Part shown: positions 5,615 through 24,343 of the stretch, piece by piece
Position numbering within the stretch: the first letter of the stretch is position 1
Layout of the letters: each line of letters begins with the position of its first letter
Sequence record: SRR31156797_22474
Reading direction: 5' to 3' (one strand)
Length of the DNA stretch: 33,481 nt
Translations under genes and position numbers: made by a program
Notes under the pieces: model-generated
Databases searched by the model: none
What the model was told of the DNA's origin: nothing
The model's input: only the letters and a program-made list of their open reading frames with translations

Positions 5615-6055
5615 TTAATATTTTTTGTATAAACTCATTTTGCCCGACTGGTCAAACGCAATCACGTTGAAATCTTTGTATGGTTGGTTTGGTGCCGCCA
5701 TCCCAGGAGAGTGTTGAGGCATCCCCGGTGCAGCTAAACCTGAAACATTGTTTGGTCTTTCACTTAGTAGGCGTGCGATATCTTCTTCGGGTACGTGCCC
5801 CTCTACCATATAGCCGTCAATCACCGCAGTATGACAGGACATCAACTGGTTAGGCATACCAAACTGTTTCTTCACTGAACTCCAGTCTTTCTGATGGTGG
5901 ATATTCACCTCGTAGCCTTTGTCTTCCATGATCGCTGCCCACTCTTTACAGCAACCACAGGTTGGCGATTTGTACAGTTCTATTGTTGGCTTCGCAAATG
6001 CTGAAAAGCTTAATGTTAGTGCCGAAAGTGTTATCGCTTTTATCAAGTGTTTCAT
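5615..6055 (-). CDS. copG: DUF411 / CopG-like periplasmic copper oxidoreductase
   Basis: Signal peptide (AFA|K), YKSPTCGCC..W, SCHTA, EGHVP and GLAAPGMP.HSPGM motifs; last gene of the Cu operon. Confidence 0.85.
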   Translation of the reverse strand: MKHLIKAITLSALTLSFSAFAKPTIELYKSPTCGCCKEWAAIMEDKGYEVNIHHQKDWSSVKKQFGMPNQLMSCHTAVIDGYMVEGHVPEEDIARLLSERPNNVSGLAAPGMPQHSPGMAAPNQPYKDFNVIAFDQSGKMSLYKKY

Positions 6056-6080
6056 TCATCATTCCTCTTGCGCGAAAGTA

Positions 6081-6641
6081 TCACTTCACATCAATGGTTA
6101 AGTGACTTTGATTATAGTTAAGTTTAATGACCCCTATATCCGGGGTCCATTCCAGTGCTTTAGTTTCGTAAGGACTCAGCTGTATAGATTGTTCGGTAAT
6201 GGATTTTGGTAGGTTGAGATCAATGGCCTCGAATGTCTTATTAAACAACACCAGTTGAGTCGGTTTGTCGAGTTCAACTGAGACACTGGAATCCAAAGGT
6301 TTATCTTCGATAGTCCACTCGACCAGATGGACCTTTCCTAAGGTTTGTAAATAAAGAGCTAAGTTCTTTTTGTCACCGTTAGAAAGTGCGCTGGCTAAAA
6401 GCATCATGGTTGGCTCGGTAGCGAGGCTATGATTGATGTCCTCGAGTGTCTTACCTCTAATGTTTCCTCCCACATTGCCAGCACCATTAGCAAATAACCC
6501 ATGACAAGCTGAGCAGCCATAACCACCCGCGGTTCGAAACAAGTGTTCGCCAGCCTCAAATGAGGGAGGCGTTTCGGCTTGAGCGACAAAGCTGGTTAAT
6601 GTGATCAAAGAGCAAATTAACGCATTATTTAAAACTTTCAT
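6081..6641 (-). CDS. periplasmic mono-heme c-type cytochrome with beta-rich C-terminal domain
   Basis: Signal peptide (AQA|E), single CxxCH (CSACH), candidate distal Met in 'PTMM'; GGAG RBS. Confidence 0.8.
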   Translation of the reverse strand: MKVLNNALICSLITLTSFVAQAETPPSFEAGEHLFRTAGGYGCSACHGLFANGAGNVGGNIRGKTLEDINHSLATEPTMMLLASALSNGDKKNLALYLQTLGKVHLVEWTIEDKPLDSSVSVELDKPTQLVLFNKTFEAIDLNLPKSITEQSIQLSPYETKALEWTPDIGVIKLNYNQSHLTIDVK

Positions 6642-6664
6642 GATGTCCGTTTGTTCTCCAACAA

Positions 6665-6690
6665 AGCCCCAAAGGAAGTTCTTTGGCGCT
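6665..6690 (-). terminator. intra-operon hairpin after copI (partial terminator or stabiliser)
   Basis: On the minus strand AGCGCCAAAG-AACTTC-CTTTGGGGCT followed by TTGTT. Confidence 0.45.
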
Positions 6691-6698
6691 GATTGAAC

Positions 6699-7262
6699 TT
6701 AAAGCGTAATTTTCTTAGTCATGCCCGCTTCTGCATGGCCGGGAATGTTGCAGGCAAACTCAACATTTTTGTCACCATGGAAGTGCCACAGCATTTGTTT
6801 CGCTTTTCCGGGTTCGACCGTGACAGTGTGCCCCATATCATGCATGTGCTGACCGTTCATATTTTTCATCATTTCACGGTGCATCAGTTGCTCTTCTTCA
6901 GAACCAATGGTGAACTCATGATCGATTTTGCCTGTATTCATCACCACAAACTGAACCACATCATCCGGCTCAATAGTGACCTCTTTCTTGAAGGTAATTT
7001 TCATATCGTCAGACAGAATGACATGTACGACTTTGTTTGGTTTAGCGCCATTAGCTGGCATACCGACATCAGACATGCCATCCATATTCATCATGTTGCC
7101 ATGATCCATATTGGTGTTGTCCATCATCATAGTGCCTGTAGACATTTGGCTGTGGTCCATATTGCTATGATCCATGTTGCTGTGATCCATGGCGTTGTTC
7201 ATCGCCGCGAAAGCGACGGAAGAGCTGATGGTTAACGCGATAGCTAATGTTAATTTTTTCAT
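6699..7262 (-). CDS. copI: CopI-like periplasmic cupredoxin with Met/His-rich N-terminus
   Basis: Signal peptide, (MDHSN)n repeats, type-1 Cu ligands HEF...C-x4-H-x4-M (CNIPGHAEAGM). Confidence 0.85.
   Translation of the reverse strand: MKKLTLAIALTISSSVAFAAMNNAMDHSNMDHSNMDHSQMSTGTMMMDNTNMDHGNMMNMDGMSDVGMPANGAKPNKVVHVILSDDMKITFKKEVTIEPDDVVQFVVMNTGKIDHEFTIGSEEEQLMHREMMKNMNGQHMHDMGHTVTVEPGKAKQMLWHFHGDKNVEFACNIPGHAEAGMTKKITL
7146..7190 (-). repeat. three imperfect 15-bp tandem repeats encoding MDHSN/MDHSQ
   Basis: ATGGATCACAGCAAC ATGGATCATAGCAAT ATGGACCACAGCCAA on the minus strand. Confidence 0.8.
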
Positions 7263-7280
7263 GTTTGTTTCCTCAATAAA

Positions 7281-10200
7281 TTATTGGGTTTCACGCTGTT
7301 TCCACAGCTTGAAGATTGCCGGTATAACGAGCAAAGTCAGTAGTAAGGCAGACGCCATGCCACCAATCATAGGAGCGGCGATGCGTTGCATGATTTGTGA
7401 ACCAGTACCATGGCCATACATGATTGGGATTAAGCCAATGATGACGGTAATAACAGTCATCATGACAGGACGAACACGCAGTCCGGCACCCTCGCGAATA
7501 GCGTTGTTTAAATCATCTTTAGTAATCGGAACACTTTGTTCCTGAGCTTTGAGTTTGGTGTAGTGCCATGCCTGATTGAGATAAACCAGCATGATGACGC
7601 CTATCTCCACCGCCACACCGGAGAGGGCGATAAAGCCTACGCCTACCGCGATGGATAAGTTGTAGTTGAGTGAATACATCAGCCACAGGCCACCTACCAT
7701 CGCTAATGGTAGCGTTGCCATGATGATCAGCACTTCACCGATACGACGGAAGCTGAAGTAGAGAAGCAGAGTGATGATGGTTAGCGTGATTGGAATGACC
7801 ACACTCAGGCGTGCTTTCGCGCGTTCCATATATTCGTATTGCCCAGACCATGCTAACGAGTAACCGGCAGGCAGTTTGAGCTCATCAGCCACTCTTTTTT
7901 GCGCTTCAGTGACATAAGAGCCGAGATCTCTGCCATCGATGTCGACAAACACCCAGCCGTTAGGACGAGCATTCTCAGTCTTGATCATTGGAGGACCGTC
8001 TTCGTAGCGAATATCGGCCACATCCGCCAATGCAATGCGAGCACCGTTGGGTGTAACTAACGGCAAGTTCTGCAATTTCACTACCGAATCGCGGTAGTCT
8101 TGTGGGTAGCGAACATTAATCGGGTAGCGTTCTAGCCCTTCAATGGTTTCTCCGACATTCATACCGCCAACCGCGGTTGAAACCACTTGTTGGACATCTT
8201 TGATATTCAGTCCGTATCGAGCTGCCGCTTTACGTTTGATATCGACGGTTACGTATCGGCCGCCTGCTACGCGTTCTGCGTAAACTGAAGCAGTGCCTTC
8301 TATTTGGTTGAGAATCGGTTCTAGTTGTGAACCAATGCGTTCAATGGTTTTCAAATCTGGCCCGACGATTTTGATACCAATCGGTGTTTTGATACCGGTT
8401 GCCAACATATCTATACGGGTTTTGATTGGCATTACCCAAGCGTTTGTTAGCCCCGGGAACTGGATTAAACGGTCAAACTCTTTACGTAGTGATTCGCTGG
8501 TAACGCCTTCTCGCCACTCTTCACGCGGTTTAAGCTGAATGACAGTTTCGATCATCGTTAGTGGTGCTGGGTCGGTTGCGGTTTCTGCACGTCCCACTTT
8601 GCCCCAGACGGTTTCCACCTCCGGTACGGTTTTGATTAGCTTGTTGGTTTGTTGCAGTAGCTCACGCGCTTTACCGATTGAGATTCCTGGGTAGGTAGTC
8701 GGCATATACATTAAATCGCCTTCATCCAACGGTGGGATAAATTCGCTACCCAGTTTACTGGTTGGGTAATACGCTGAAGCCATAAGCGCGATAGCTAAAA
8801 CCAGTATCGATTTAGGGTACTTGAGGCTCACATTCAGTAGCGGACGATAGAGCGCGACTAGCCCTTTGTTTACGGGGTTTTTATGTTCAGGCAGAATTTT
8901 TCCGCGAATGAAATAGCCCATGAGTACGGGAACTAATGTAATCGCTAAGCCTGCGGAAGCAGCCATGGCATAGGTTTTGGTAAACGCCAGCGGCGAGAAC
9001 ATTTTCCCTTCCTGACCTTCCAATGCGAACACCGGAACAAAGCTTAATGTGATGATAAGCAGCGAGAAAAACAGAGGAGGTCCCACTTCTTGAGCCGCGT
9101 CACCAATGACTTGCCAACGGTTTTTGTCGGTCAGAGGGGTTCGTTCAATGTGCTTATGCACATTTTCGATCATCACTATTGCACCATCGACCATGGCTCC
9201 TATGGCAATCGCGATGCCACCCAGCGACATGATGTTGGCGTTGATGCCTTGCCAGTGCATGATGATAAACGCTGATAAAATACCGACAGGTAAACTTAGA
9301 GCAATCACCAGCGATGAACGAATGTGGAACAGGAACAGTGCACAGACAATCGCAACAACAATGAACTCTTCCGCCAGCTTCTTCCATAAGTTATCAACCG
9401 CCGCGTTGATTAGGGTAGAGCGGTCGTAAGTTGGAACGATCTCAACGCCATTTGGTAAACCACGTTGCAGTTCTTCGAGTTTGGCTTTTACGTTGTCGAT
9501 AACCTGACTGGCGTTTTCACCAAAGCGCATCACAATCACGCCACCAACCGCTTCACCTTCACCGTTCAGTTCAGAGATACCACGACGCATTTGCGGGCCA
9601 AGGTTGATGTCTGCAATGTCACCGAGTAACAGCGGTGTTCCTTGGTTGGTGACTTTAAGTGGTAAAGACTCAATGTCTTCAATGCTCGTCAAATAGCCTG
9701 TGGTACGAACCATATGCTCGGCTTCTGCGACCTCAACCACCGACGCGCCCGTTTCCTGATTGCCGTTTTGAATCGCCATGTTGACTTGCTGAAGCGTCAG
9801 ATTGTAAGCGCGCAGTTTTGCCGGATCGATTTGAATTTGATATTGCTTAACCATGCCGCCGACCGTGGCGACTTCGGATACGCCATCAACGGTTTGCAGT
9901 TCGTATTTTAGAAACCAGTCCTGCAGGCTACGTAGCTGTGCTAAATCGTGCTGTCCGTTTTTGTCTTGCAGCACATAGCTGAACACCCAGCCTACGCCTG
10001 TCGCATCAGGGCCAAGAGTTGGTTTCGCATTTGCAGGCAGCTTTGGTGCGACTTGGCTAAGGTATTCCAGCACCCGTGAACGCGCCCAATACATATCGGT
10101 TTTATCATTGAAAATGATATAGACGTATGAGTCCCCAAAGAACGAATAGCCACGTACCGTTTCAGCTCCCGGAACCGCGAGCATGGCTGTCGTGAGCGGA

Positions 10201-10400
10201 TAGGTCACTTGATCTTCAACCACTTGTGGAGCTTGCCCCGGATAGCTGGTTTTAATGATCACCTGCACATCTGACAGATCAGGAATAGCGTCAACGGGAG
10301 TATTTTTAACACTGTATAGGCCAGCACTGACTAGCACGATGGTTGCTAGCAACACAATAAATCGATTGCTCAGAGACCAGCGAATAATGGCATTAATCAT
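7281..10400 (-). CDS. cusA: CusA/SilA heavy-metal efflux RND permease
   Basis: 1039 aa; '[33 protein letters not shown]', '[13 protein letters not shown]', 'DLMYMP', 'PLTMIET', 'RIDMLATG' (Cu-binding Met positions as in CusA). Confidence 0.97.
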   Translation of the reverse strand: [1039 protein letters not shown]

Positions 10401-12106
10401 TGCTTGCCTCCGATTCGTTCAATACTCTTCAGAGCAAAATCATCGTTTTGTTTTTGGACTAGAAACCGAACTCGGTCACCTTCGTCTAAACCTGAAAGTT
10501 TCACATCGGGGTCGACCGTGAAGTTCATTTCACCCGCTTCCCAGTTCCATTCAGATACGGGTAAATGCTGTACAGTAATCATGCCGAAATCGGGCATAAG
10601 CATGGTGATATCACCTTCAACCCAAACCTCTCCGGCCAAAACATTGCCGTCTGATTTTAAGTCGATAACTTGATATCCCCCTTCTGGTGTCTGTTTTAGT
10701 TCAAATTCAATCACTTGGCCGTTAGTCAATGAGGCGATATCAACACCGTCAGCAGCGATGAAATTCATCGTCATTCCCGGCCAGTTCCATTCTGGGATAG
10801 GCTGGTGGTTAATGGTCAATGTGCGTGAGGTGGGTAATACATCACTAATGGTGCCTTTTGCCCACACACTATCTGCACTGTCTGCAACACCGTCGATACG
10901 CGCTAAGTCGGCGGTTTGGCTTGACTCTGAATCCAGTAAGAAGTGCGCAGAAGAAGCGACTTTACTCTGCTCGGTCAGTCCTTGTAGAACTTCTATTTGG
11001 TCGCCAGCTTCGCGTCCAACCTGAACTCGAGCGGAGCGGTACTTGCCATTACCTTCCGACAATACAACGCGAGTCATTCCGCCGGTACGAATCACCGCTG
11101 ATTTAGGAATGGTGAGTACGGACTCGTCTGTCACAGGTTGCAGTGAAATATTGGCAAACATGTTGGGTTTGAGTTCTCCCTTTGGATTAGGGAACTTGAG
11201 TCGCAGACGTAATGTGCGGGTTTGTGGGTCTAGAATTGGGTAGACGTAATCAATTTCACCTTGCCACTCTTTACCCGGAATCGCATCGAGATTCATTGTT
11301 GCTTTACTGCCAGCTTTTACCCAGTGTGATTGGCGCTCAAACACTTCTGCATCAACCCACACATTTTCAATTGGGCCGGCACTAATCACTGCTTGTGCAG
11401 GCGATAGATAACCCCCTTCACGAACGTTAAGGCTAGCGATGATGCCATCGGCTTTCGCCTTAATGTCGATGGTTTGCGACGCTTTGCCACGTTTTACTAT
11501 TGCCTTGATTTGTTGGCGGTCGACACCGAGAGTGACCAGACGTTCTGTGGCTCCTTTGATTAATCCGTTTCTACCAGTACGGTAAGCATTGATCAGCTCC
11601 TCTTGAGCTTTGACTAAATCAGGCGAGTATAGAGTGAAAAGTACGTCGCCCTTGCTGATTTTATCGCCAACAGCATTAACATTGAGTTTCTCAACCCAAC
11701 CAGCCACACGAACGTTGGTTTGCCACAATTGGCTTTCATCAAAGGCGATGTAACCGACGGTTTCGATACTGGGTGAGAGACGAGCCATTTTGGCCTGTAC
11801 CACTTTCACTCCCAGGTTATTTTCTACCGCCGGATCAATGGTAACCGTGCCCGGTTTGGTCTCTTCAGCACCGTCTTCGGCGTAAACTGGGATCAGATCC
11901 ATCCCCATCGGAGATTTGCCCGGTTTGTCGCGTTTGTAGTTTGGATCCATTGGAGCAACCCAGTAGAGCGGTTCGTTACTTGCTTTCGTCTGTTCTGCTT
12001 GAGCTGTGTGAGTAGCCATCCCTGTTTGTGACAGAAATGTTTGTGCGCCAAATCCCAGCGTTGCGCCGATAACAAGCGCGAGTGTTGTTACATGAATTGT
12101 TTTCAT
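10397..12106 (-). CDS. cusB: CusB-type periplasmic adaptor fused to two C-terminal CusF-like domains
   Basis: N-terminal 'YWVAPMDP...KSPMGMDLIP' metal-binding motif, MFP core, then 'INHQPIPEWNWPGMTMNF' and 'VQHLPVSEWNWEAGEMNF'; ATGA overlap with cusA. Confidence 0.93.
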   Translation of the reverse strand: MKTIHVTTLALVIGATLGFGAQTFLSQTGMATHTAQAEQTKASNEPLYWVAPMDPNYKRDKPGKSPMGMDLIPVYAEDGAEETKPGTVTIDPAVENNLGVKVVQAKMARLSPSIETVGYIAFDESQLWQTNVRVAGWVEKLNVNAVGDKISKGDVLFTLYSPDLVKAQEELINAYRTGRNGLIKGATERLVTLGVDRQQIKAIVKRGKASQTIDIKAKADGIIASLNVREGGYLSPAQAVISAGPIENVWVDAEVFERQSHWVKAGSKATMNLDAIPGKEWQGEIDYVYPILDPQTRTLRLRLKFPNPKGELKPNMFANISLQPVTDESVLTIPKSAVIRTGGMTRVVLSEGNGKYRSARVQVGREAGDQIEVLQGLTEQSKVASSAHFLLDSESSQTADLARIDGVADSADSVWAKGTISDVLPTSRTLTINHQPIPEWNWPGMTMNFIAADGVDIASLTNGQVIEFELKQTPEGGYQVIDLKSDGNVLAGEVWVEGDITMLMPDFGMITVQHLPVSEWNWEAGEMNFTVDPDVKLSGLDEGDRVRFLVQKQNDDFALKSIERIGGKQ

Positions 12107-12119
12107 TGTGTTTGCCTTG

Positions 12120-13502
12120 TTATTGTTGCTCTGAATCGATGTTTACTTCTGGTTTGTTGACCTGATAGCTGTAGCTGTTTAGTAATGCTGAGAGGTTGTT
12201 GTTAACCAGATTGAGATCGGTGATGAGACGCTGGTACTCCAGCTTTAATGCAAGTTCATCACGACTCGCTAAAATCACATCGTTAAATTGAGCTGTGTTG
12301 TTTTGGTAGCCTCGCTCTGTAGCTTCCACGCGTGAATCGGCTTGTGGCAGCAAAGTGGATTCAAAGCGTTGTAAGCGTTGAGCGAGGTTATTTTTGTCAA
12401 CCAATAGGGCGTTAACTTTGGCGTTCATTTGACGCAGCAAAGTGTCTTTTTGCGACTGTGCTGCGCCGACTTGATATTGTGCCGCTGCCAGATTTTTGTC
12501 CTGCTTGTTTCCCGTGAACAAGGGGATATCCATAGTGAGGTAAGCACTGACTAAATCCGATGCAGGTTCACCGCGCATGTTGTTGGATTGACGATAGGCG
12601 TACATGACTTCGACACCGAACTGAGGTGCGTAGGACTCTCGCGCGATATCGACTTGGGTTCGACGTACATCAATCGAGGCATCCACCATTTGTACCGTTG
12701 GGTTTTGGTTAAGTTGAGGGTAAAAGTCATTGGTGGTTGCCGAATCTTCGAGATGCTGCAAGGTACTCCAGTCAAGTTGATTGGTAGCGGTGAGAGACTG
12801 ATTGTTCAAAAGCCAGTCTGAGCCTAACCATTCCGACAACTGAGCATTGAGGCGTTGTTGCATTTGCTGATTGGCCTGAATTTTTTCATCCAGTTTTGTC
12901 ACCTGTAACTGGGCGTTAATCAGATCCTGAGTTTCACTTTTACCGATGGAGTAATTGGTGTTGATGTAATTTTCCAATTCTTGCATCAGAGTTCGGTTTT
13001 CAAGCAGTACACGATTTGCCACTTGCTGGTAACCGAGTTCTAGCCAGATTTTCGTCATGGCATTAATGATTTCGAGTTCTCTTGTGGCAACTCTTACTTC
13101 AAGTCCACTAGCCTGGAAATTGGCTTTTCTATCGTTTAGATCGGATGTGTCGCCACGATTGAACTGTTGCATCAGACCAACAGAGATGTTGGTCATTGGG
13201 TCTTCGTCAAAGGCAAAGCTATCGGTGGGTAATCCAGTCACGCCAAATTTCAGTTTTGGATCCATTAAGGTCGCGCTGGCTTTACCCGTCTCACGCACAG
13301 CGAGTGCTTCTGCGTAGTATTGACGGCGTATTCCATCGTTAGTCAGTGCTGCTTCAATCAGCTGAGTCAGTGTTTTATCGGTATTTGGCTTCATCTCACC
13401 CGTTGCAGGCTCATTCATGAGCTGCTCGTTGGCGTACAAAGGAGCTGCTGCCAATACCGCTGCACTTACAGAAAGTGCCAAAAGGCATTGTTTTAATTTC
13501 AC
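12120..13502 (-). CDS. cusC: TolC-family outer membrane efflux channel (CusC-like)
   Basis: Signal peptide, OEP repeats ('P.L..G...', 'LTMDIPLF', 'GYQNNTAQFNDVI'); first gene of the CBA trio; GTG start. Confidence 0.85.
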   Translation of the reverse strand: MKLKQCLLALSVSAAVLAAAPLYANEQLMNEPATGEMKPNTDKTLTQLIEAALTNDGIRRQYYAEALAVRETGKASATLMDPKLKFGVTGLPTDSFAFDEDPMTNISVGLMQQFNRGDTSDLNDRKANFQASGLEVRVATRELEIINAMTKIWLELGYQQVANRVLLENRTLMQELENYINTNYSIGKSETQDLINAQLQVTKLDEKIQANQQMQQRLNAQLSEWLGSDWLLNNQSLTATNQLDWSTLQHLEDSATTNDFYPQLNQNPTVQMVDASIDVRRTQVDIARESYAPQFGVEVMYAYRQSNNMRGEPASDLVSAYLTMDIPLFTGNKQDKNLAAAQYQVGAAQSQKDTLLRQMNAKVNALLVDKNNLAQRLQRFESTLLPQADSRVEATERGYQNNTAQFNDVILASRDELALKLEYQRLITDLNLVNNNLSALLNSYSYQVNKPEVNIDSEQQ

Positions 13503-13508
13503 TTTTTT

Positions 13509-13584
13509 ATTCCATCACTGAGCGCGTAACGCGCACGAGAATTCTTCCGTATTGACTACGGAACCTAATTGCTGAAGATGGAAT
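13509..13584 (-). promoter_or_regulatory. RNA structure sequestering the cusC ribosome-binding site
   Basis: In the mRNA, AUUCCAUC (13584-13577, overlapping the leader stop) is complementary to GAUGGAAU (13516-13509, cusC SD region) and encloses two hairpins (13545-13563, 13522-13534). Confidence 0.65.
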
Positions 13585-13982
13585 TAAGCTATTGGAGGCC
13601 GATAAAGGCTTTGAGTTTGATGAACAACTTCACCGGAAAGGGGGGGAGTAAATAACACCAAAGAGGTACTGGCTGTTACGATGAGATTGGGGGCTGTAAA
13701 TAGTGCAACAGAGGTCGCGCAGGTTGAATCACAGCAGTCGTGGACGATATCGGTTTGCACGTGACATTGTGCCGTCATAGCATCGGTATCGGCGGACGGC
13801 TTCATCATGTTTTGATGATGGAGAGGCATCGATTGCAGGTTGGAACAACCGGATTCTAGGGTTTGTTCACTAAATGGCGCGGCGTTGTTTATCATCATTG
13901 AACTTGAGGCGAAGCTGGACATAAGCAGTGCTGCTAATGCCAGGATCGTTATCCAAGTTGTAGGGATGATATTAAAGCGCAT
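13584..13982 (-). CDS. CopL/CutF-like Cys/His/Met-rich exported leader protein with C-terminal RPP motif
   Basis: Signal/TM N-terminus, 'MPLHHQNMM', 'CHVQ..VHDCCDSTC', ends 'LYRPPIA*'; ATG 13982 preferred over TTG 13988. Confidence 0.75.
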   Translation of the reverse strand: MRFNIIPTTWITILALAALLMSSFASSSMMINNAAPFSEQTLESGCSNLQSMPLHHQNMMKPSADTDAMTAQCHVQTDIVHDCCDSTCATSVALFTAPNLIVTASTSLVLFTPPLSGEVVHQTQSLYRPPIA

Positions 13983-14012: not shown

Positions 14013-14043
14013 ACTATAAAGCTTCCCCCTAGGGAAAGGTCAA
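14013..14043 (-). promoter_or_regulatory. sigma70 promoter with CueR (MerR-family) operator
   Basis: TTGACC-19 bp-TATAGT with dyad ACCTTTC-N7-GGAAGCT across the -35 and spacer, versus CueR consensus ACCTTCC-N7-GGAAGGT. Confidence 0.9.
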
Positions 14044-14098: not shown

Positions 14099-14626
14099 TC
14101 AATTTTCAAGGTCAAAACACTCCGCGTAACTACTACATTGTTCGCAACTCGGTGAGCGACAAATAAAGTCGCCACCGTTTTCACACAACTGCCGATATAA
14201 AAACCGTTTCCAACGCATATTGTTGACGTTTTGGGCTCTTAGCGGTGGGAAATAGTCACTAAACAATGCCGTGAGGCGAGGGCGTTCTGGCATACCAAGA
14301 TCATGCCAAAGGTGCTGGCTTCCCATGCACGCACAGGCCAGAATGTGTGCCATCTCTTCACCTAAAGGCACAGCAGTATTTAGTGAGTCGAGTAACAGTG
14401 CTTTCAGCTCATTGAACTCTGATTGACGCATATTCAGTAGTTCAAGACGAAGCCGCAAGTTTGGCTCCACCTCGGGTTCAAGAGGTGGGTTCTCTATGCC
14501 GAGTTCGTGCAACAGATGATGAAAATGAGGATCGCTAAGGCCTAAGCTCAACGGCAGGGCACTGTTACCTGCAGCGTAATTTTCAATGATAGGCAACCAA
14601 TAATCTGTAGCCAGATGTTTACTCAT
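14099..14626 (-). CDS. nifQ: NifQ, molybdenum donor for FeMo-cofactor synthesis
   Basis: 'HLWHDLG', 'N..NMRWKRFLYRQLC' and C-terminal Cx4Cx2Cx5C (CRSPSCEQCSSYAEC). Confidence 0.95.
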   Translation of the reverse strand: MSKHLATDYWLPIIENYAAGNSALPLSLGLSDPHFHHLLHELGIENPPLEPEVEPNLRLRLELLNMRQSEFNELKALLLDSLNTAVPLGEEMAHILACACMGSQHLWHDLGMPERPRLTALFSDYFPPLRAQNVNNMRWKRFLYRQLCENGGDFICRSPSCEQCSSYAECFDLEN

Positions 14627-14895
14627 GTTTGCGCTCTAACTTCTTTCGTCACCACCAAGGGCATCAAACTGCCCACAGGGTTAAGTGGATTGCTGGCACT
14701 ATCAATAATAGCCTCTTCGACCGGACAAATACTGGCACATTGTGGGTTGTCAAAGTGGGACGTACACTCATCACAGCGTTTTGGGTGAATATGGAACTGG
14801 TTGGCCAGATCGGCGTCCGGATAGACGGCTTGATTGGGACAGACCACCATACAAGCGTGGCAACCTACACAGTTATTGCTGATGACAAAGCTCAT
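14623..14895 (-). CDS. fdxN: 2x[4Fe-4S] nif-associated ferredoxin
   Basis: CxxCxxCxxxCP and CxxC-x8-CxxxCP; ATG 14895 has a GGAGG RBS and overlaps the nifB 3' end by 23 bp; ATGA overlap with nifQ. Confidence 0.88.
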   Translation of the reverse strand: MSFVISNNCVGCHACMVVCPNQAVYPDADLANQFHIHPKRCDECTSHFDNPQCASICPVEEAIIDSASNPLNPVGSLMPLVVTKEVRAQT

Positions 14896-16228
14896 AGACA
14901 GCCTCCGACGATGAATTAGTAACAAGTTCTTTAGCGATAGTATTTAGGCTGTCAGAGACAGGTTTGAATGCAAAATCCACATTCGGCTGTACGCCGAGCT
15001 TTTCCAGTTCTCGCCAAGGGGTGATCCCCATTCTGGCACTGAGAACCATTTGGCAATCGGCAATGGATTGGATTAACGCCTCTTTTTCAATTTCACCATC
15101 ACCACATTCTTGTTTGCCATTGCAGTAAAGTTCAACATGACGTGTTTCTTGGTAGAGGAATTGCTCGGATTGCTGATCAAACAGATAGATTTCAAACCGT
15201 GTGGCGTGACCAAAGTGCAGTTGAATGTACTCACTACCATCGCTAGCAACAGCTACACGGTATGTTTTATGGTTCGCAACCGGTTGAGACGGATTTGAAT
15301 CCGAATTTGTACCGGATGAACATGGTGACTCGCCATCTCCGAGCATACCGACCGCATCTGCTCGGCATTGCTGGCAATGGGTCATTTGTGGCATATGGTC
15401 ACCACATTGTTCACGAGCGAATAACACTTCTTCTTCGGTTGGACCTCGCTGGCCCGACAAACCAAAGTAAGTTCCATGAGCAGGATCGGAAATGAGCGGC
15501 ATAATGTTGTGCAGCAGAGCGCCGCGTTTTTTTACTTCTTCAGATACTTCTGCAATATGTTGGTGGTTCACGCCGGGGATAAGTACGGTGTTTACTTTGA
15601 CCAACATGCCAGCCAGAGCTGCTAGCTCAAGACCAAGCAGTTGTCTTTCGATAAGAGTCTGAGCCGCTTCGCGTCCGCGTAAGCGGCGATTATTGAAGTA
15701 AATCCAAGGATAGATCTTCTCACCAATTTCTGGGTTTACAGTGTTAATGGTAATAGTCAGATGGTGAACGCCAACTTCTGCTAGCTCTTCAACATGATCG
15801 GCCAAAGCCAAACCGTTGGTGGAAATGCAAAGCTGTACCTCCGGATGTGCGTCTTTAAGCAGACGAAGAGTGGTGAAGGTTGCTTTAGGATTAGCCAAAG
15901 CGTCACCAGGCCCAGCGATACCTGCAACGGTTAAGTTTGGGGCGCGTTTTTTTATCGTGTTGAATTGCTTGAGTGCACCGCTGCTGTCCATCACGTTAGA
16001 CACCACGCCGGGGCGTGACTCGTTACTGCAGTCGTATTTTCGGTTGCAATAGTTGCACTGGATATTACAGGCTGGTGCCACAGGCAGATGCATCCGCGCA
16101 TACTGATGTGCCTCTTTTGAGTAGCAAGGATGCTGTTGGATTTTTTCCTGCACTTGCTTGGTAAAGAAGTGATGAACTTTCTCTTTTTTCGCATTTGGCG
16201 ATCCGTTCGCGCGAGAATGACTTTCCAT
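14873..16228 (-). CDS. nifB: NifB radical-SAM FeMo-cofactor biosynthesis protein with C-terminal NifX-like domain
   Basis: HPC, CNIQCNYC, ESRPG, AGPGD, TITIN, CQQCRADA; C-terminal 'VAVAS...HFGHATRF'. Confidence 0.98.
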   Translation of the reverse strand: MESHSRANGSPNAKKEKVHHFFTKQVQEKIQQHPCYSKEAHQYARMHLPVAPACNIQCNYCNRKYDCSNESRPGVVSNVMDSSGALKQFNTIKKRAPNLTVAGIAGPGDALANPKATFTTLRLLKDAHPEVQLCISTNGLALADHVEELAEVGVHHLTITINTVNPEIGEKIYPWIYFNNRRLRGREAAQTLIERQLLGLELAALAGMLVKVNTVLIPGVNHQHIAEVSEEVKKRGALLHNIMPLISDPAHGTYFGLSGQRGPTEEEVLFAREQCGDHMPQMTHCQQCRADAVGMLGDGESPCSSGTNSDSNPSQPVANHKTYRVAVASDGSEYIQLHFGHATRFEIYLFDQQSEQFLYQETRHVELYCNGKQECGDGEIEKEALIQSIADCQMVLSARMGITPWRELEKLGVQPNVDFAFKPVSDSLNTIAKELVTNSSSEAVYELCHQQ

Positions 16229-16288
16229 GTCTACCTCTTAATCTCCAGATAAAAACTTGGGCTCTTAGCCCTCATAATATTAAGGAGT

Positions 16289-16304
16289 AGCAAGCTTTGT
16301 TCCT
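16289..16304 (-). promoter_or_regulatory. sigma54 -24/-12 promoter of nifB
   Basis: AGGAAC-AAAGC-TTGCT (GG-N10-GC). Confidence 0.85.
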
Positions 16305-16320
16305 ATCTATAACCTTTAAT

Positions 16321-16333
16321 ATTCAATAGGTTA
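16321..16333 (+). promoter_or_regulatory. IHF-like site in the nifB promoter
   Basis: ATTCAATAGGTTA, one mismatch to WATCAANNNNTTR, lying between the UAS and the -24/-12 element. Confidence 0.55.
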
Positions 16334-16381
16334 AAAATGGTGCTTAACAACAATTGTTCGAAACCGGACAAATTAAGCACC
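16333..16381 (-). terminator. probable nifLA terminator hairpin enclosing the nifB UAS
   Basis: GGTGCTTAA / TTAAGCACC 9-bp inverted repeat starting 10 nt after the nifA stop, followed by ATTTTT on the minus strand. Confidence 0.55.
16355..16370. promoter_or_regulatory. NifA upstream activator sequence for nifB
   Basis: TGT-TCGAAACCGG-ACA (TGT-N10-ACA). Confidence 0.88.
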
Positions 16382-16391
16382 CTATTGTTTG

Positions 16392-17993
16392 TTATATTTG
16401 TTTCATTTCGATGTTCATGGTCTGAATTCGATAAGCGATTTGTCGCGGTGTCATATTTAGCAGGCGGGCGGCTTTGGCTTTCACCCAGCCAGAGCGTTCT
16501 AGCGCATCAATCACCATCTCTCTTTCGTCACCAGTCGAGAAGTCTTTGGCCATGTTCTGTGGCTCCGAGGTTGAAGTCGGTGGCACTGACGGCTGAGTTT
16601 GCGTTGGTGTGAAAGGGTGTTGAGCCGCGGGTTGAAACACAGGTTGAGACTTGTTAAGTGTAATCAGATCTGGGCCAATCGTACCGGATTCGCACAGGAC
16701 CGAAGCTCGCTCTAAGGTGTTCTCCAACTCACGAACATTACCCGGCCATTGGTGAGACATCATTAGGCGAATCGCTTCATCGCTTAACGTTAACTTGCGC
16801 TGTTGCGCTTTACTTAAGTTCTGAATCATATGTTCAGCGAGCTCTGGAATGTCTTGCAGACGTTCGCGTAGTGGTGGCAAGTACATTGGCATAACATTGA
16901 GTCGATAATATAAGTCTTCACGGAAATTGCCTTGCGCGACTTCTTGTTCAAGATACCGGTTGGTTGCGGCAATGATCCGTACATTGACTGAGATTGTGGT
17001 TGTTCCACCGACGCGTTCAAACTCTTTCTCTTGTAATACGCGAAGCAATTTTGCCTGGAATGCCGGACTGGTTTCACCGATTTCATCCAGAAAAATTGTA
17101 CCGTTATCCGCCATTTCAAAGCGGCCTTTACGTTGCTTAACTGCACCTGTAAACGCCCCTTTTTCATGACCGAACAGCTCTGATTCAAGAAGGTTGTCGG
17201 GCAGCGCAGCACAGTTGAGTTTGACGAAAGAAAGGTTGGCGCGAGGTGAGTTGTAGTGAATGGCATTGGCAACCAGTTCTTTACCTGTGCCGGATTCACC
17301 GCGGATAAGAACGGTGGAATCCCAGCGAGAGACCAAGCGAATTTGCTCAAAGATCTGACGCATTGATTTGGTATGCCCGACTAAGTTGCGGAAGCTATAG
17401 TTGTTGCGGACTTTACGTCGTAGGTTATCTCTTTCATCCACTAACTGTTGCTGATGCGTCTCGACCTTATGGGCAAGCTGAACATTCTTGGCGATCAAAT
17501 TCGCAATCATGTTGAGAAAGTCTGTCTGTAAGGTAATGAACTGTTCCACAAATCGAGGAGGTTGAGCCGATAGGGCGCCAATCACTTTTCCGTTAGCGTC
17601 TTTTAACGGTACACAGATAAAAGGTTTCTCATAGTCGTAAAGCGCCAGTTTGTCCGCAAAGCGTTGGTCGTTGCCAAGGCTATTGATCACGATAGAGCTA
17701 CCTTGGCGTAATACTTCCCCGACTAACCCTTCTCCGACTTTGTATGAGACCTGCTTATGTTGTGCGGCAGAATTGGGCTGTGGCGAATGTACTGATTTGA
17801 TCAATAAAATATCGCGAGCATTGTCCAGAATCGTCAGCATACCGCATTGCAACCGACACTCATCGTGCAGCAGTTGCAAGATTTTGTCGGAAGACTCGAC
17901 ATAGTTGAGGCTGGTATTCAACACGCTAGACACTTTATACATCGCGGCCAGTAATTGACGTTCTAAATTCAATAAAGTCATTTCTTCTGTCAT
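16392..17993 (-). CDS. nifA: NifA, sigma54-dependent nif transcriptional activator (GAF-AAA+-HTH)
   Basis: GAF N-terminus, [24 protein letters not shown]-terminal '[21 protein letters not shown]'. Start uncertain (17993 or 18005), next to the nifL stop. Confidence 0.97.
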
Positions 17994-17998
17994 GTCGA

Positions 17999-19528
17999 TC
18001 ACCATTGGCTGATGGGGAAGGTTAGACAAATATGCGCACCCCGTAAGCGTTCACTGTCGCTGACATTGATGGTGGCTGAGTGTTCATTGAGAACTTGTTG
18101 AACGATAGAGAGCCCAATCCCTCTGCACCCAGACTGGTGCTTTGGTTTCGTGCTGAAAAAGGGTTGGAAGATTTTCAGTTTGTGCGAATCTTCTATTCCA
18201 ATACCACTGTCTTCAACCACCACTTTTATTTCACCATCTGTTTCGTAACAGCAAATAATGATCGTACGCTCACTGGTTTTCGCCGCTTGTATGGCATCAA
18301 TGGCATTATCGATTAACTGCTTTAACGCAAGAATAAGCCGGTGAGACATGCCATTGATCGTGGATATACGGGGAGACAATATCAGCTCAAGATTGGTGGA
18401 GGATTTAAGTAACTCATCGGTGCTGATATCACTGACATCACGAATGACCTGATTTAGGTTCACTGGCTGAAAAGCTTCACGACTGCGTTCAGGAATCGCC
18501 AGCTTGATATCCTGCATAGCATCTAGCGCACTGTCCATCGCTTCATCCATCGCGACCAGTCCAGGGCATGAAGGATTGGTTCGTTTGAGAATACGTACCG
18601 CCGATTCAATCATGTTGAATGGGCCTTGCAGTTGATGCAGCGTGCCCATTAATGCTTCCTGCATTGCATGAACGTACTTGTTGTCGCGCGCCATTAATTT
18701 CATCGCGTTGATCCGTCGCTCCTCAACGAGCTGCTTTTCGCGCGTTCTTTCTGAAATCGCGATGACGGTGTACTCATCATCCTCGGGGAGGAAATAGGAA
18801 TCGACAGAACTGCCTGAAATCGGAGCTTTGACTAAAGCGTATTCGAACCAGCGTTCGCGCACGGGTTCTTTACTGGCAACGTAAACACCTTTGTAACGAC
18901 TCTCTTTTTTCCCTAAAAAGTCGGTAATGGAGTCGTGGCCATAATCATCGATCAGACTGTTTAGTAACGCTTCAATGGGGGACTGGTTGATGCTCTTTTC
19001 AATATGACTGAATTTCTCATTGCTGAACAGAACATTGTGAGAGCGGTCGACTAATGCAATGGCTATTGGCGCGGCATTGAGTACCGCCTGGAACATGGCG
19101 AACTGGTTTTTTTGTTCTGTGACACGCTGGTGGCGTTCGGTAATATCGCGGTGAATCGCGTAATAGCACACTTTGCCATGAGGATGCGATAAACGAGAGA
19201 TTGAGATCTCTGCTATGTAAGCTTCGCCATTTTTCTTGCGGTTGACGAGCTGCCCTTGCCAGTGATGACCTTCAGAAATGGTTTTCCACAGACTTTCATA
19301 AATCGATTTGGGCGTTGCTTTATACGAAAGAAGTGAAGAGTTGTTACCGATCAGCTCTTCATAGCTATAACCCGTAATGTCTGAAAATGTCTGATTTACA
19401 AAGAGAATGGTTCCCTTGTGATCCGTAATGCTGATCGCTACTGGTGCATGTGAAACGATTTGTTCAAATGCTTGATAATCAAATACGGGTGGCGTTGAGC
19501 CCTCTAATAACGTGTCTACTTGTCCCAT
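17999..19528 (-). CDS. nifL: NifL redox/nitrogen-sensing anti-activator (PAS-PAS-GHKL)
   Basis: PAS1 '[21 protein letters not shown]', H-box-like 'LHQLQGPFN', N/G1/F/G2 boxes; upstream of nifA. ATG 19528 has an AAGGA RBS and lies downstream of the predicted promoter. Confidence 0.95.
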
Positions 19529-19573
19529 AAGTGCTGTCCTTTGCTCTGTTTGGTCCTTCGGCAAAGTACACAA

Positions 19574-19856: not shown

Positions 19857-20432
19857 ATGTCTGAAGGATTGATTATTTTGCTCAGTGCGGCGTTTGTTAA
19901 CAACGTGGTTCTGGCTAAGTTTCTCGGTCTATGTCCATTTATGGGCGTATCCAGCAAGATCAGCAGCGCGGTAGGGATGGGAGTTGCGACGACATTTGTA
20001 CTGACCATCGCTACGGTCTCAACCTGGCTGTTGGAGTTTTATGTATTGAGACCCTTAGGTCTCGATTTCATGCGTATCATTGCTTTTATCCTCGTGATCG
20101 CCGCAGTGGTTCAGTTCACAGAACTCTATGTGAAGAAGAGCTTCCCTGCGCTTTATCAAGCACTCGGTGTCTATCTACCACTCATCACCACCAACTGCGC
20201 TGTGTTTGGGGTGGCTTTGTTAGCGGTACAAGATGATCTCTCATTCATTGATACGTTGATGTTCAGTGTTGGCTCTGCTGCGGGTTTCTTAATCGTCATC
20301 ACTTTATTTGCTGGACTACGCAGTCAGTTAGTGTTGAGCCGAGTCCCTGCGGCATTCAAAGGCACCCCAATCGCATTTATTACCGCGGGTTTCTTATCGA
20401 TGGCCTTCATGGGCTTTTCTGGAATGGCTTAA
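19857..20432 (+). CDS. rnfA: Rnf electron transport complex subunit A
   Basis: 'NNVVLAKFLGLCPFMG', 'LGVYLPLITTNCA'; multiple TM segments. Confidence 0.96.
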   Translation: MSEGLIILLSAAFVNNVVLAKFLGLCPFMGVSSKISSAVGMGVATTFVLTIATVSTWLLEFYVLRPLGLDFMRIIAFILVIAAVVQFTELYVKKSFPALYQALGVYLPLITTNCAVFGVALLAVQDDLSFIDTLMFSVGSAAGFLIVITLFAGLRSQLVLSRVPAAFKGTPIAFITAGFLSMAFMGFSGMA

Positions 20433-20475
20433 CTGACAGCGCTCACCATCATAAGACGGTCAAGGAGGACTGACG

Positions 20476-21009
20476 ATGTTAATCATGGCATTAGTATTTT
20501 TTATCAGCTTAGGAGGATTGCTCGGGGTGGCTCTTGGGTATGCAGCCATTCTGTTTCGTGTTGAGAGCAATCCATTGGTCGACCAAATTGAGTCCATTTT
20601 ACCTGGTGGACAATGCGGTCAATGCGGTGAAGCTGGGTGTCGTCAAGCTGCTGAAAAAATGGTTTCCGGTGAGCTAAACCCCAGTTCTTGTCCTCCGGGA
20701 GGGGCTAACCTTGCCGTATCTGTTGCCGAGATGCTTGGCGTATCGATTGACGTTGATGAGCAAGATAAACCCTTGGTTGCTTATATTGCGGAAAGTCAGT
20801 GCACCGGTTGTAACCGTTGTTATAAGGCTTGTCCGTTCGATGCCATTGTTGGTGCGCCAAAGCAAATTCACACCGTGATCAAAGATGTCTGTACGGGTTG
20901 TCAGCTATGCCAAAAAGCGTGTTCTCAACACTGTTTAAATATGGTGGAGGTTGAGCCAGATGCATCCAATTGGTATTGGCCGAAACCCACACAGCCGGTT
21001 GCGGTATAG
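20476..21009 (+). CDS. rnfB: Rnf subunit B (Fe-S)
   Basis: N-terminal TM, 'LPGGQCGQCG..GC', CPPGG, two CxxCxxCxxxC motifs; AGGAGG RBS. Confidence 0.96.
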   Translation: MLIMALVFFISLGGLLGVALGYAAILFRVESNPLVDQIESILPGGQCGQCGEAGCRQAAEKMVSGELNPSSCPPGGANLAVSVAEMLGVSIDVDEQDKPLVAYIAESQCTGCNRCYKACPFDAIVGAPKQIHTVIKDVCTGCQLCQKACSQHCLNMVEVEPDASNWYWPKPTQPVAV

Positions 21010-21018
21010 GAGCTGATT

Positions 21019-22740
21019 ATGTTGAGTTTAACAGGGTCACCGTTTCGTGGTGGCATTCATCCTAAAGCGTATAAAGAGCTGACGAAGGACAAGAAAATTG
21101 ATACGGGTTTTTGGCCTCGTAATATCTACCTGCCATTGCAGCTTCGCAACGGAGCGCGACTCAAACCGCTAGTTAAAGTGGGGGAACACGTTTACCGCGG
21201 GCAAAAAATCGCAGTCGGTCACACGGATATGATCGCGCCGATACATTCGTCAGTGAATGGGATAGTCACTGCGATTACCGAGCATTTAACGACACATCCG
21301 GCCAAAGTGAAATGTGAAACCATTATTATTCGTGCGAACGAAAACCGCCAGTGGGGAGAATCGGCGGTGACCAGTAGTATTCAAAATTTAGCACCGGAAG
21401 CCATTATTGAGCGTGTGAAAGAAGCGGGAATTGTTGGCTTAGGTGGAGCAGGATTTCCTACGGCGGCGAAACTGATGTTTGCACGTAAAGGGAAGGTAGA
21501 TACGCTGATCATTAACGGCGGGGAGTGTGAACCTTACCTAACCTGTGATGACCTCACCATGCAGACTTTTGCTTCTGAAGTGGTTTCTGGCATCAAGTTG
21601 ATGATGAGTGCAAGTGGCGCGAAAAAAGCCATTGTGGGTATTGAAGACAATAAGCGTGATGCTTTCGATGAGATGCTTCATGCTGCCAATGCAGAGCCGG
21701 ATATTGAAATTCGTCTGGTACCCAGCGTTTACCCTATGGGGTCTGAAAAGCACATGATAAAAACCCTAACCGGACATGAAGTCCCTGCTGGTGGCTTATC
21801 GACGCAAATCGGTATTTTGGTCAACAATATCGCCACCGCTCGCGCTGTGTATCATGCGGTTCGTTTCCAACGTCCACTGGTGTCACGCATTGTGACGGTT
21901 TCTGGTCAGGGGATAGAGCAGCCATGTAATCTCGAGATACCGATAGGTACGCCCGTCAATGATGTGATCAACTACTGTGGTGGATTGCGCGCCAGCACTG
22001 AACGACTGTTGTTTGGAGGCCCGATGATGGGGCAGGTGATCCCGTCACTTCAAGCGGCTGTCGATAAGACGGTTGGGGGCATTCTCGCTTTAACAGACGA
22101 TGAGGTGATTGACGAATACAAACATCAAGAATGTATTCGTTGTGGACAGTGTGTTCGTGCTTGCCCTATGAACTTAATGCCTTTTCAGATGGCAGCTTAT
22201 ACACGTGTTTCAGACTTTAAACGTGCTCAAGATCTTGGCGTGCAAAACTGTTTATCTTGTGGTGCATGTAGTTATGTCTGCCCTTCTTCCATTCCTTTGG
22301 TTCAGTACTTTATGCACGCGAAAGGGGTGATCAACTCCAATGCACAGCAAGAAAGGAAATCGGCTCAAGTTAAGGCATTGAATGAAGCTCGCAAGCAGCG
22401 CCTAGAGCAAGAGGCATTAGCAAAACAAGCGGCTAAGTCAGCCAAGCGTCCGGGACGCCCTTCAAGAGGGGCTCCAGTAGCCACTGCAACAGAAGGCGCA
22501 GAAAAACCTGCTCGTCCAGCGAGACCCTCTCGGCCTTCACGTAGTGGTTCTGCCGAGAGCATAACTGCTGAAACTGTCGTCGCAGCAAAACCTGAACGTC
22601 CAGAACGACCAACAAGACCCGCGAGAAAACCACGCAATGAAAATGTGGATGCTGAACAAGTTGAAGCTGTTGCTGATAAACCTCAGCGACCCGCTCGTCC
22701 ACCAAGACCTCAACGCAAAGTGAGGGAGGAACAAGCATGA
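21019..22740 (+). CDS. rnfC: Rnf subunit C (NADH/FMN-binding, 2x[4Fe-4S]) with Arg/Pro-repeat C-terminal tail
   Basis: 'GGIHP', 'GIVGLGGAGFPT', 'NGGECEPYLTCD', 'CIRCGQCVRACP', 'CLSCGACSYVCPS'. Confidence 0.96.
   Translation: MLSLTGSPFRGGIHPKAYKELTKDKKIDTGFWPRNIYLPLQLRNGARLKPLVKVGEHVYRGQKIAVGHTDMIAPIHSSVNGIVTAITEHLTTHPAKVKCETIIIRANENRQWGESAVTSSIQNLAPEAIIERVKEAGIVGLGGAGFPTAAKLMFARKGKVDTLIINGGECEPYLTCDDLTMQTFASEVVSGIKLMMSASGAKKAIVGIEDNKRDAFDEMLHAANAEPDIEIRLVPSVYPMGSEKHMIKTLTGHEVPAGGLSTQIGILVNNIATARAVYHAVRFQRPLVSRIVTVSGQGIEQPCNLEIPIGTPVNDVINYCGGLRASTERLLFGGPMMGQVIPSLQAAVDKTVGGILALTDDEVIDEYKHQECIRCGQCVRACPMNLMPFQMAAYTRVSDFKRAQDLGVQNCLSCGACSYVCPSSIPLVQYFMHAKGVINSNAQQERKSAQVKALNEARKQRLEQEALAKQAAKSAKRPGRPSRGAPVATATEGAEKPARPARPSRPSRSGSAESITAETVVAAKPERPERPTRPARKPRNENVDAEQVEAVADKPQRPARPPRPQRKVREEQA
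22444..22720 (+). repeat. four (RPx)n peptide repeats in the RnfC tail
   Basis: KRPGRPSR, KPARPARPSRPSR, KPERPERPTRPAR, KPQRPARPPRPQR separated by Ala/Glu/Val linkers. Confidence 0.85.
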
Positions 22741-23738: not shown

Positions 23739-24343
23739 TCGAGCAAATAGAGAAATACAAACATCGAGTTGGCTACCAAGCAGGACTGTTATCTGTCACT
23801 TGCGGTTTGGCAGCGATCCTTTTGGTGCTAACGCAATGGCTGACTCAGCCAGTGATAGAACTGCGGATTGCAGAGGATCAAAATGCGCTGCTTGGTGAGG
23901 TACTGGGTGGTCAGGAATACAGTAACGATGTTTTCGCAAACGGCAGTGTTATTGAGTATCAAGGCGCCCAATATGACCTTTTTCCTGTTGAAAATGAACA
24001 GAAAGAGCTGATTAGCTGGGTGATCCGTGGTGAACAGGATGGCTATAGTGGACCTATTCATTTCTTGGTCGGAGTGACTTTAAACGGCGAAATCATCGGT
24101 GTGCGCATCATTAGTCACAGTGAGACGCCGGGGCTGGGCGATAGAATCGAAATTGCGAAAAGCTCTTGGGTACTCAGTTTTGCCAAACGTTCATTAGAAA
24201 ACACGCCCCTGTGGGCCGTAAAGAAAGATGGTGGTGATTTCGACCAGTTTAGTGGGGCGACCATTACACCTCGCAGTGTCGTGAAGGGCGTTCATAAAGC
24301 GTTACTGGCATTAGAACAAGCACAGGAGGCCCGCAATGAGTAA
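23735..24343 (+). CDS. rnfG: Rnf subunit G
   Basis: 'GYSGPI', 'HSETPGLGD', FMN-binding '[11 protein letters not shown]'. Confidence 0.96.

Follow-up and report, generated by a model that had tools for sequence, protein, structure and literature searches.

A candidate CutF-type translational copper switch heading a CueR-type-promoted cusCBA-copI operon in Vibrionaceae

The window considered here, a 33,481-nucleotide stretch of DNA from sequence record SRR31156797_22474, carries on its minus strand a copper-efflux operon in which a small open reading frame (ORF), referred to as the leader (P0001), precedes cusC, cusB, cusA and copI. The leader and the spacer RNA between it and cusC probably constitute a CutF-type translational copper switch heading a CueR-type-promoted cusCBA-copI operon, a reading to which a probability of about 0.6 is assigned. 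Such a switch would combine an Arg-Pro-Pro (RPP) motif at the end of the nascent leader with an RNA helix that hides cusC's Shine-Dalgarno (SD) sequence. A mechanism of this sort had been proposed in an earlier note made from the letters of the window, and that interpretation is probably right in kind. The features of the locus are collected in Table 1.

The earlier note had described a Cys/His/Met-rich ORF ending in LYRPPIA, and its product indeed contains 5 Cys, 5 His and 8 Met among 132 residues. The signal peptide that it also proposed would correspond to a hydrophobic, basic N-terminus, as read from the sequence: Arg2 can be picked out by eye, along with a hydrophobic stretch and a site of small residues, and AlphaFold2 places a helix at residues 5-26. 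Beyond it lie a His/Met-rich stretch, C73 and the motif H81xCCxxxC88. AlphaFold2, supplied with 150 sequences, predicts the N-terminal helix alone and no globular fold (mean predicted local distance difference test score, pLDDT, 68; predicted template modelling score, pTM, 0.28).

A word-indexed search returned 9 close relatives, every one ending in SLYRPPIA, and a genome scan yielded 22 loci (L001-L022) from Vibrio, Enterovibrio and Photobacterium, in which the invariance of the motif is partly by construction because QSLYRPPIA was itself a scan pattern. Outside this motif the scanned proteins share 24-34% identity with the window leader, and comparison of the window with L003 revealed that the codons for QSLYRPPIA differ at 9 nucleotides, all of them synonymous. 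An unbiased profile search of 1.84 billion representatives recovered 215 protein clusters at E <= 1e-3 and 112 at E <= 1e-10. Among the best 150 profile matches, RPP stands within the last 12 residues in 143 and is followed by exactly two residues and the stop codon in 133, the near-invariant ending being SLYRPP(I/S/T)(A/V)-stop. H81, C83, C84 and C88 are invariant in 21 Vibrionaceae leaders, and across 150 sequences (P0001 and 149 profile matches) conservation of C73, C83, C84 and C88 is 90% or higher. Both CxxxC and RPP were present in 129 of 151 proteins examined; the first Pro follows the second Cys of CxxxC at a spacing of exactly 41 in 116 of these 129, and of 40-42 in 125. The synonymous changes beneath the motif argue for selection of the leader as a peptide, and a fixed ending at a 41-residue distance from CxxxC is as would be expected of a nascent-chain sensor.

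The segment that begins at the leader's stop codon, AUUCCAUC, had been noted earlier as the exact complement of GAUGGAAU over the cusC SD, and the 8 nt do pair perfectly (helix P1), with the GGA of the SD 8 nt before the GTG start codon of cusC (13502-13500). The minimum free energy (MFE) fold of 13480-13620 (minus strand) reproduces the multi-branch structure also claimed, in which this helix closes over two hairpins (P2 and P3); the closed structure is, in this model, a three-way junction. The arm-to-arm duplex amounts to -14.1 kcal/mol, versus a mean of -6.5 for shuffled 5′ arms, and 0 of 200 shuffles were as good. Rfam 15 offered no family for the RNA element, its three matches at E 1.4-5.4 being chance.

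A cusC-like ORF of 453-483 aa with an SD-associated start lies downstream in 21 of 23 sequences (the window and L001-L022), with GGA 4-11 nt before the start; the exceptions are a V. cholerae locus (L008) and a contig that is truncated (L011). The stop-codon-proximal segment pairs with the GGA region in every one of the 21 loci that have cusC downstream, and each of the 21 spacers, folded singly, yields the same three-way junction of P1 and two hairpins (z -1.7 to -4.3 against mononucleotide shuffles). The UCC:GGA core of P1 is fixed while its flanks co-vary (AUUCCAUC:GAUGGAAU, AAAUCCAUC:GAUGGAUUU, UAAUCCGAUC:GAUUGGAUUA and AUCCAUUCU:AGAAUGGAU), and cognate arms pair at -12.1 kcal/mol versus -9.1 for non-cognate ones. 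P2 differs almost wholly in sequence among lineages, the hairpin being kept at the same position. The covariation that the earlier note suggested looking for among Vibrionaceae cusC leaders was found: in alignment A8 (19 sequences, fitted to our own structure), 12 of 19 pairs change on both sides, including 5 of the 6 modelled pairs of P2 and 4 of the 5 of P3, where 90.6% of cells are paired. Over the whole alignment 84.3% of cells pair, compared with 28-45% when the partners are slid, and 0 of 500 shuffles reached the observed pairing values. These compensatory changes argue for selection on the RNA structure.

Thirty further loci, picked by protein profile alone, served as an independent sample; most come from the family already represented in the first set, and no fewer than 21 of the 29 order-sample genomes turn up again in the family sample. 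The RPP-plus-two-residues ending occurs in 28 of these loci, and in 24 the MFE fold joins the first 20 nt to the last 28 nt. A best-duplex landing test gave 26 of 30 observed against 13.3 expected, which is modest support, its null being lax.

Three further observations concern the spacer. In a V. cholerae ATCC 14035 contig (L008:2501-3023) the leader is intact and the spacer, alignable to that of V. mimicus (L006) over ~71 nt, retains nothing of the structure beyond the 5′ arm, P2 and P3's 5′ half; a 169-aa CopI/Cot-like gene then follows, cusCBA is absent and no helix lies over the SD of the new gene (MFE -9.5). The locus is a natural deletion of the switch's 3′ half together with cusCBA. 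At 13537-13544 (minus strand) the window reads AAUUCUC just 5′ of P3, where many of the relatives L006-L022 carry a conserved unpaired U-rich run (UUUUYC); one might guess that the 30S subunit or protein S1 uses it as a standby site. Finally, in metatranscriptome contigs of related strains, spacer variants were seen only at 13509 (terminal P1 pair), 13554 (P2 loop) and 13574 (P1-P2 junction), among 40 of the differences, 49 further ones lying outside that set.

The effect of a ribosome at the end of the leader was modelled by letting it cover the mRNA as far as +14, counted from the first base in the P site, medians being taken over the 21 loci. The probability that the SD is unpaired is 7e-5 in the free RNA (0.002 in the window), 7e-4 with Pro129 in the P site (window 0.000), 0.073 with Pro130 in the P site (window 0.109) and 0.075 with the stop codon in the A site (window 0.291). 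The helix therefore lies, in this model, where none but a ribosome on the last three codons would open it. The earlier note had envisaged that a ribosome at RPP, three codons before the anti-SD, melts the helix; folding bears this out once Pro130 has reached the P site or the stop codon the A site, and not with Pro129 in the P site.

In the published CutF model, export of the leader accompanies its translation, the exposed CxxxC binds copper, a ribosome stalls at C-terminal prolines and a stem-loop over the next ribosome-binding site melts (PMC9973294; 2025 preprint). The architecture of the window matches this mechanism, as the earlier note had suspected, and every feature that is checkable in sequence fits, including both spacings. 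Briefly, transcription would start at the MerR/CueR-type promoter, the first cistron being a short exported peptide. In the free mRNA, 8 nt from the end of the leader stop codon would pair with the cusC SD, leaving little translation of cusC and, through polarity, of the pump. A ribosome that lingers on the final leader codons would occupy the 5′ arm of P1 and free the cusC ribosome-binding site. From the analogy with CutF we infer that copper binding to the Cys/His part after its export would prolong the proline pause and give more cusC translation; tuning by copper or export, and its direction, would follow the same analogy. A logic in which copper lengthens the pause and the pump comes on would make sense for an efflux system, whereas that of CruR, considered below, would not.

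Expression data for V. parahaemolyticus bear on such a second layer. At 1 mM copper the mRNA of an unnamed gene just before cusC rose 75-fold and that of cusC 1454-fold, and loss of cueR lowered the cus genes 2.6- to 4.4-fold versus 38-fold for copA (PMC12341060 Table 1); the upstream gene is not taken up by the authors of that paper. If this gene is a homologue of the leader, the difference between 75- and 1454-fold would fit a second, post-initiation layer, bearing in mind that fold changes from a low baseline are noisy. A tentative extension, against which we would set the odds, is a two-compartment coincidence detector: CueR would read cytoplasmic Cu(I) to make the mRNA, the half-exported nascent leader would read periplasmic copper and set the ribosome's dwell time on the last codons, the junction would set the stop codon beside the cusC start, and the same ribosome, or one waiting at the U-rich run, could start cusC as the helix opens. 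If true, this would explain the rigid geometry of RPP, two codons, stop and helix, and the far larger copper induction of cusC than of the leader.

Several results weigh against the CutF-type switch. Taken as a whole, the 13480-13620 region folds no better than its shuffles, 34 of 200 doing as well (z -0.93), and since A8 was fitted to the structure, its pair counts are tilted in the structure's favour. With plain MAFFT alignments of 21, 16 and 11 spacers, RNAalifold recovered only a single hairpin each time, either P3 or a portion of P2; the helices are thrown out of alignment by one-base shifts of register beyond the stop codon and by the variability of P2, and our own structure was therefore given to a covariance model. 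The first model (R1, 11 spacers plus that structure) did not find the window at E <= 1. Realigned and rebuilt as R2, with a training alignment that excludes the window and includes its close relatives L001 and L002, it detects the window (Table 1), misses 4 Vibrionaceae loci with long insertions and finds 0 of the 30 profile-sampled loci, so that the architecture is common and the sequence is not. The closing helix is absent from the MFE fold in 6 of those 30, and several of the 24 positive ones are near-identical to one another. As for the peptide, the leader falls below the thresholds of both Pfam DUF2946 and NCBIfam CopL. The R(A)PP arrest motif claimed in the earlier note stands as far as RPP; the Ala of the R-A-P-P in arrest peptides such as ApdA/ApdP is absent. 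RPP thus departs from the canonical RAPP, and EF-P normally relieves stalling at an isolated diproline. RAPP arrests occur with Pro in the P site and Pro in the A site, and the Pro129 P-site state leaves the SD masked, so that a pause would be needed one codon later or at termination. Both the pause and the copper effect in this subfamily are inferred.

Translational coupling without a regulated pause is an unlikely alternative to the CutF-type switch. Each finishing ribosome would open P1 and cusC would start, giving a fixed leader:pump ratio, with copper control by the CueR-type promoter alone. The promoter is conserved, each of the 21 loci has its helix starting from the stop codon and a terminating ribosome suffices to unmask the SD in the model (median 0.075), all of which coupling accommodates; it leaves unexplained the SLYRPP-plus-two ending, its 41-residue spacing to CxxxC, the export signal, the Cys motif and, should the V. 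parahaemolyticus upstream gene be a homologue, the 75- versus 1454-fold induction.

Transcriptional control in the manner of CruR appears very unlikely. Here a paused ribosome would block Rho, and release of the pause would let Rho terminate transcription in the 81-nt spacer, an action on the mRNA rather than on initiation. CruR is described as working in this way (PMC9426467), but in that system copper relieves the pause and the operon goes off, the opposite of what an efflux pump calls for. Although the upstream gene and cusC of V. parahaemolyticus differ 20-fold in mRNA induction and no intrinsic terminator was found in the spacer, a short, highly structured spacer would presumably be a poor loading site for Rho, the conserved feature is the masking of the SD, and the geometry is that of CutF (41, +2) and not of CruR (48, +3; our arithmetic). 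Highly improbable, too, is a mature periplasmic copper-binding protein or a trans-acting regulator in the style of CopL or CzcI, with an RNA structure incidental to gene spacing or mRNA stability: the nearest NCBIfam family is named "metal-binding regulatory protein" and the export signal and Cys/His/Met richness would suit a periplasmic metal binder, but AlphaFold2 predicts no fold, the strongest conservation lies in the last 9 residues and in their distance to the stop codon and CxxxC, as suits a nascent chain in the ribosome tunnel, the RNA covariation argues for a selected structure, and CutF and Xanthomonas CopL act only in cis (PMC9973294).

Of the systems already described, Rhodobacter capsulatus CutF (cutFOG; Ozturk et al. 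2021, 2023 and 2025 preprint) resembles the window leader, whose export is predicted, as a small Sec-exported first cistron with CxxxC and with C-terminal prolines followed by two residues and the stop codon. With C69xxxC73 and P109EPEGPPPRL118, its second Cys lies 41 residues from the first Pro (P114), then +2, by our arithmetic, as in the window family, and the RNA of its spacer likewise conceals the next gene's ribosome-binding site. That next gene encodes a multicopper oxidase, whereas in the window it encodes the outer-membrane factor of a resistance-nodulation-division (RND) system. The motif of CutF is PPP, that of the window leader RPP; the RNA of CutF is called a stem-loop in the papers, in contrast to the three-way junction with its closing helix from the stop codon; and the window leader, known here from sequence alone, has no Pfam DUF2946 match.

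CruR of Bordetella pertussis (DUF2946; Roy et al. 2022) is likewise described as an exported upstream ORF with a Cys motif, Arg-(Ala)-Pro-Pro near the C-terminus and conserved motif spacing, at the head of copper-related operons. Unlike the window leader, it has CXXC and RAPP separated by 45 residues, another 3 following the motif, and a spacer of 162 nt; it acts through Rho to turn a copper importer off, and has a dispensable signal peptide, as reported there. SecM and VemP, the latter in Vibrio (2025 preprint, introduction), resemble the proposed switch in that a pause close to the C-terminus of an exported leader opens the helix that covers the SD of the following gene; they differ in sensing secretion activity and controlling sec genes, and carry neither a metal motif nor sequence relation to the leader. 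CopL of Xanthomonas and Stenotrophomonas (NF033807) is the leader's best library match, end to end, albeit at 26.4 bits against a cut-off of 40. It is described as cis-acting and needed for copper-induced expression of the next gene (PMC9973294), which in Xanthomonas is a copA/copB-type oxidase and in the window is cusC.

With regard to family, the comparison with DUF2946-type leaders drawn in the earlier note needs correction: Pfam DUF2946 (PF11162) does not match P0001 even at E <= 1, and it matches 3 of 150 aligned sequences (P0001 and 149 profile matches) weakly, the best at E 0.0022. When the leader profile was aligned with one true DUF2946 protein by hhalign, the signal peptide alone aligned (probability 15%), and in place of CXXC and RAPP, the DUF2946 motifs of Roy et al. 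2022, the leader has CCxxxC and RPP without Ala. A search against DUF2946 and CopL, which the note had also suggested, thus failed for the former and gave a sub-threshold match for the latter: NCBIfam CopL_fam aligns residues 21-132 of P0001 with positions 17-129 of its 129 (E 8.9e-6) and matches 95 of the 150 aligned sequences at E <= 0.01. Set beside the CutF-like rules of Ozturk et al. 2023, the leader conforms in its 132 aa with PP at 129-130 and in its 81-nt spacer to cusC, and an RNA structure shielding the downstream ribosome-binding site, as in a CutF-type switch, is present by computation only.

Profile matches to the leader were obtained in 2 of 400 genomes sampled at the level of the class, 54 of 401 at that of the order and 207 of 301 at that of the family (Vibrionaceae species genomes), all tallies taking in the centre genome; by these samples the leader family is Vibrionaceae-centred. 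Named members come from V. cholerae, V. vulnificus, V. mimicus and V. alginolyticus. In the source annotation almost all relatives are "hypothetical protein" and two UniRef clusters are "DUF2946 domain-containing". Many Vibrionaceae genomes hold 2-4 matches to the leader profile. At two loci (L033, L055) a family member precedes a ~195-aa protein with a YGCSA-type cytochrome-c motif, with no cusC there; the window operon itself has a YGCSA-type cytochrome-c gene (6081-6641).

The class of switch is already published. Ozturk et al. 2023 report 5,334 CutF-like proteins, with OEP/CusC-type genes of RND systems as the commonest downstream neighbours (PMC9973294), and their network labels include CusD, SilD and CopL (PMC9973294). 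The Vibrionaceae subfamily is a variant within this class. The earlier note knew of no description for a Vibrio cusCBA operon; the Vibrio element was indeed not found in print, but the claim of novelty was too strong, CutF-like proteins upstream of CusC-type genes having been published (PMC9973294). In the literature consulted, neither this subfamily, the RPP-x-x-stop rule, the three-way junction with its helix from the stop codon nor its pairing with a CueR-type promoter was found, though the supplements of Ozturk et al. 2023 may list the proteins. The RNA junction appears undescribed.

A 19-nt spacer with a dyad characterizes promoters of the MerR/CueR type. The leader promoter, between nifQ and the leader ORF, has this layout by sequence, with an imperfect dyad at 14038-14022, detected as an inverted repeat, inside the 19-nt spacer, and is what we take to be a promoter of the CueR type. 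TTGACC, 19 nt, TAnnnT and the dyad are kept in 23 of 23 sequences (window and L001-L022), ~32-45 nt 5′ of the leader ATG. A promoter scanner set to spacers of 16-18 nt overlooked it. In V. parahaemolyticus CueR binds the cus promoter (PMC12341060); no cueR was seen among the window ORFs scanned. Metatranscriptome contigs from four runs (three studies) span leader, spacer and cusC at 88-99% likeness and are compatible with leader-cusC co-transcription, although contigs cannot show a single transcript, its ends or levels, and DNA carry-over is possible.

Table 1. Positions of the leader, the RNA element and the operon in the window
Feature	Position (strand)	Details
Promoter	14013..14043 (-)	TTGACC 14043-14038, 19-nt spacer, TATAGT 14018-14013; read from sequence
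Leader ORF P0001, 132 aa	13584..13982 (-)	ATG 13982, stop 13586-13584; ends QSLYRPPIA
Predicted export signal, residues ~1-26	13905..13982 (-)	Arg2, hydrophobic core, SFA/SSS by eye; AlphaFold2 helix 5-26
HDCCDSTC, putative metal-binding H-x-C-C-x-x-x-C, residues 81-88	13719..13742 (-)	Conserved in relatives
Arg128-Pro129-Pro130 codons, candidate ribosome pause site	13593..13601 (-)	Followed by Ile, Ala, stop; RPP + 2 + stop rule in relatives
Whole RNA element, last leader codon to cusC start codon	13500..13589 (-)	Covariance model R2, 34.5 bits, E 3.5e-5
P1 5′ arm (anti-SD)	13577..13584 (-)	AUUCCAUC; begins at last base of stop codon
P2 hairpin	13545..13563 (-)	UUCCGUA-GUCAA-UACGGAA; arms 13563-13557 / 13551-13545; MFE fold
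P3 hairpin, GC-rich, just 5′ of SD arm	13520..13536 (-)	MFE fold
P1 3′ arm	13509..13516 (-)	GAUGGAAU; holds cusC SD GGA 13513-13511
cusC, outer-membrane factor	12120..13502 (-)	GTG start; Pfam OEP 3.3e-26; gene with masked translation start
Remainder of operon beyond cusC	5615..12106 (-)	cusB, cusA, copI, cytochrome-c-like, DUF411/copG
cusB with two CusF-like stretches	10397-12106 (-)	Library profile matches
cusA	7281-10400 (-)	Library profile matches
copI	6699-7262 (-)	NCBIfam equivalog, 307 bits
Cytochrome-c-like gene	6081-6641 (-)	Library profile matches
DUF411/copG	5615-6055 (-)	Library profile matches

Within the operon, CusB carries its two CusF-like stretches at the C-terminus (Pfam CusF_Ec, E 1.7e-43) together with an N-terminal HMBD, and the periplasmic chaperone is therefore fused to the adaptor, with no separate gene. 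A 180-aa His-rich ORF antisense to copI (6693-7235, plus strand) is most likely a shadow of the Met/His-rich codons of copI and no gene. Nitrogen-fixation genes adjoin the copper operon (14099-19573, minus strand; 19857-25037, plus strand). On the same strand 5′ of the leader lie nifQ, a nifB-like gene (radical-SAM/NifX-type), a nifA-like sigma-54 activator with a GAF domain and a PAS-domain histidine kinase, and an rnf cluster also lies in the neighbourhood. The host is accordingly a Vibrio-like diazotroph.

If the CutF-type reading is true, the main periplasmic copper-efflux pump of these bacteria would be under a second layer of copper control, above CueR. Standard family models (Pfam DUF2946 and the NCBIfam CopL cut-off) miss this leader subfamily, and the covariation of the RNA junction is enough for its curation as an RNA family. 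The V. cholerae deletion of the 3′ half would serve as a ready-made natural comparison, and leader-cusC would provide a genetically easy system for metal sensing by a nascent chain that spans ribosome, translocon and periplasm.

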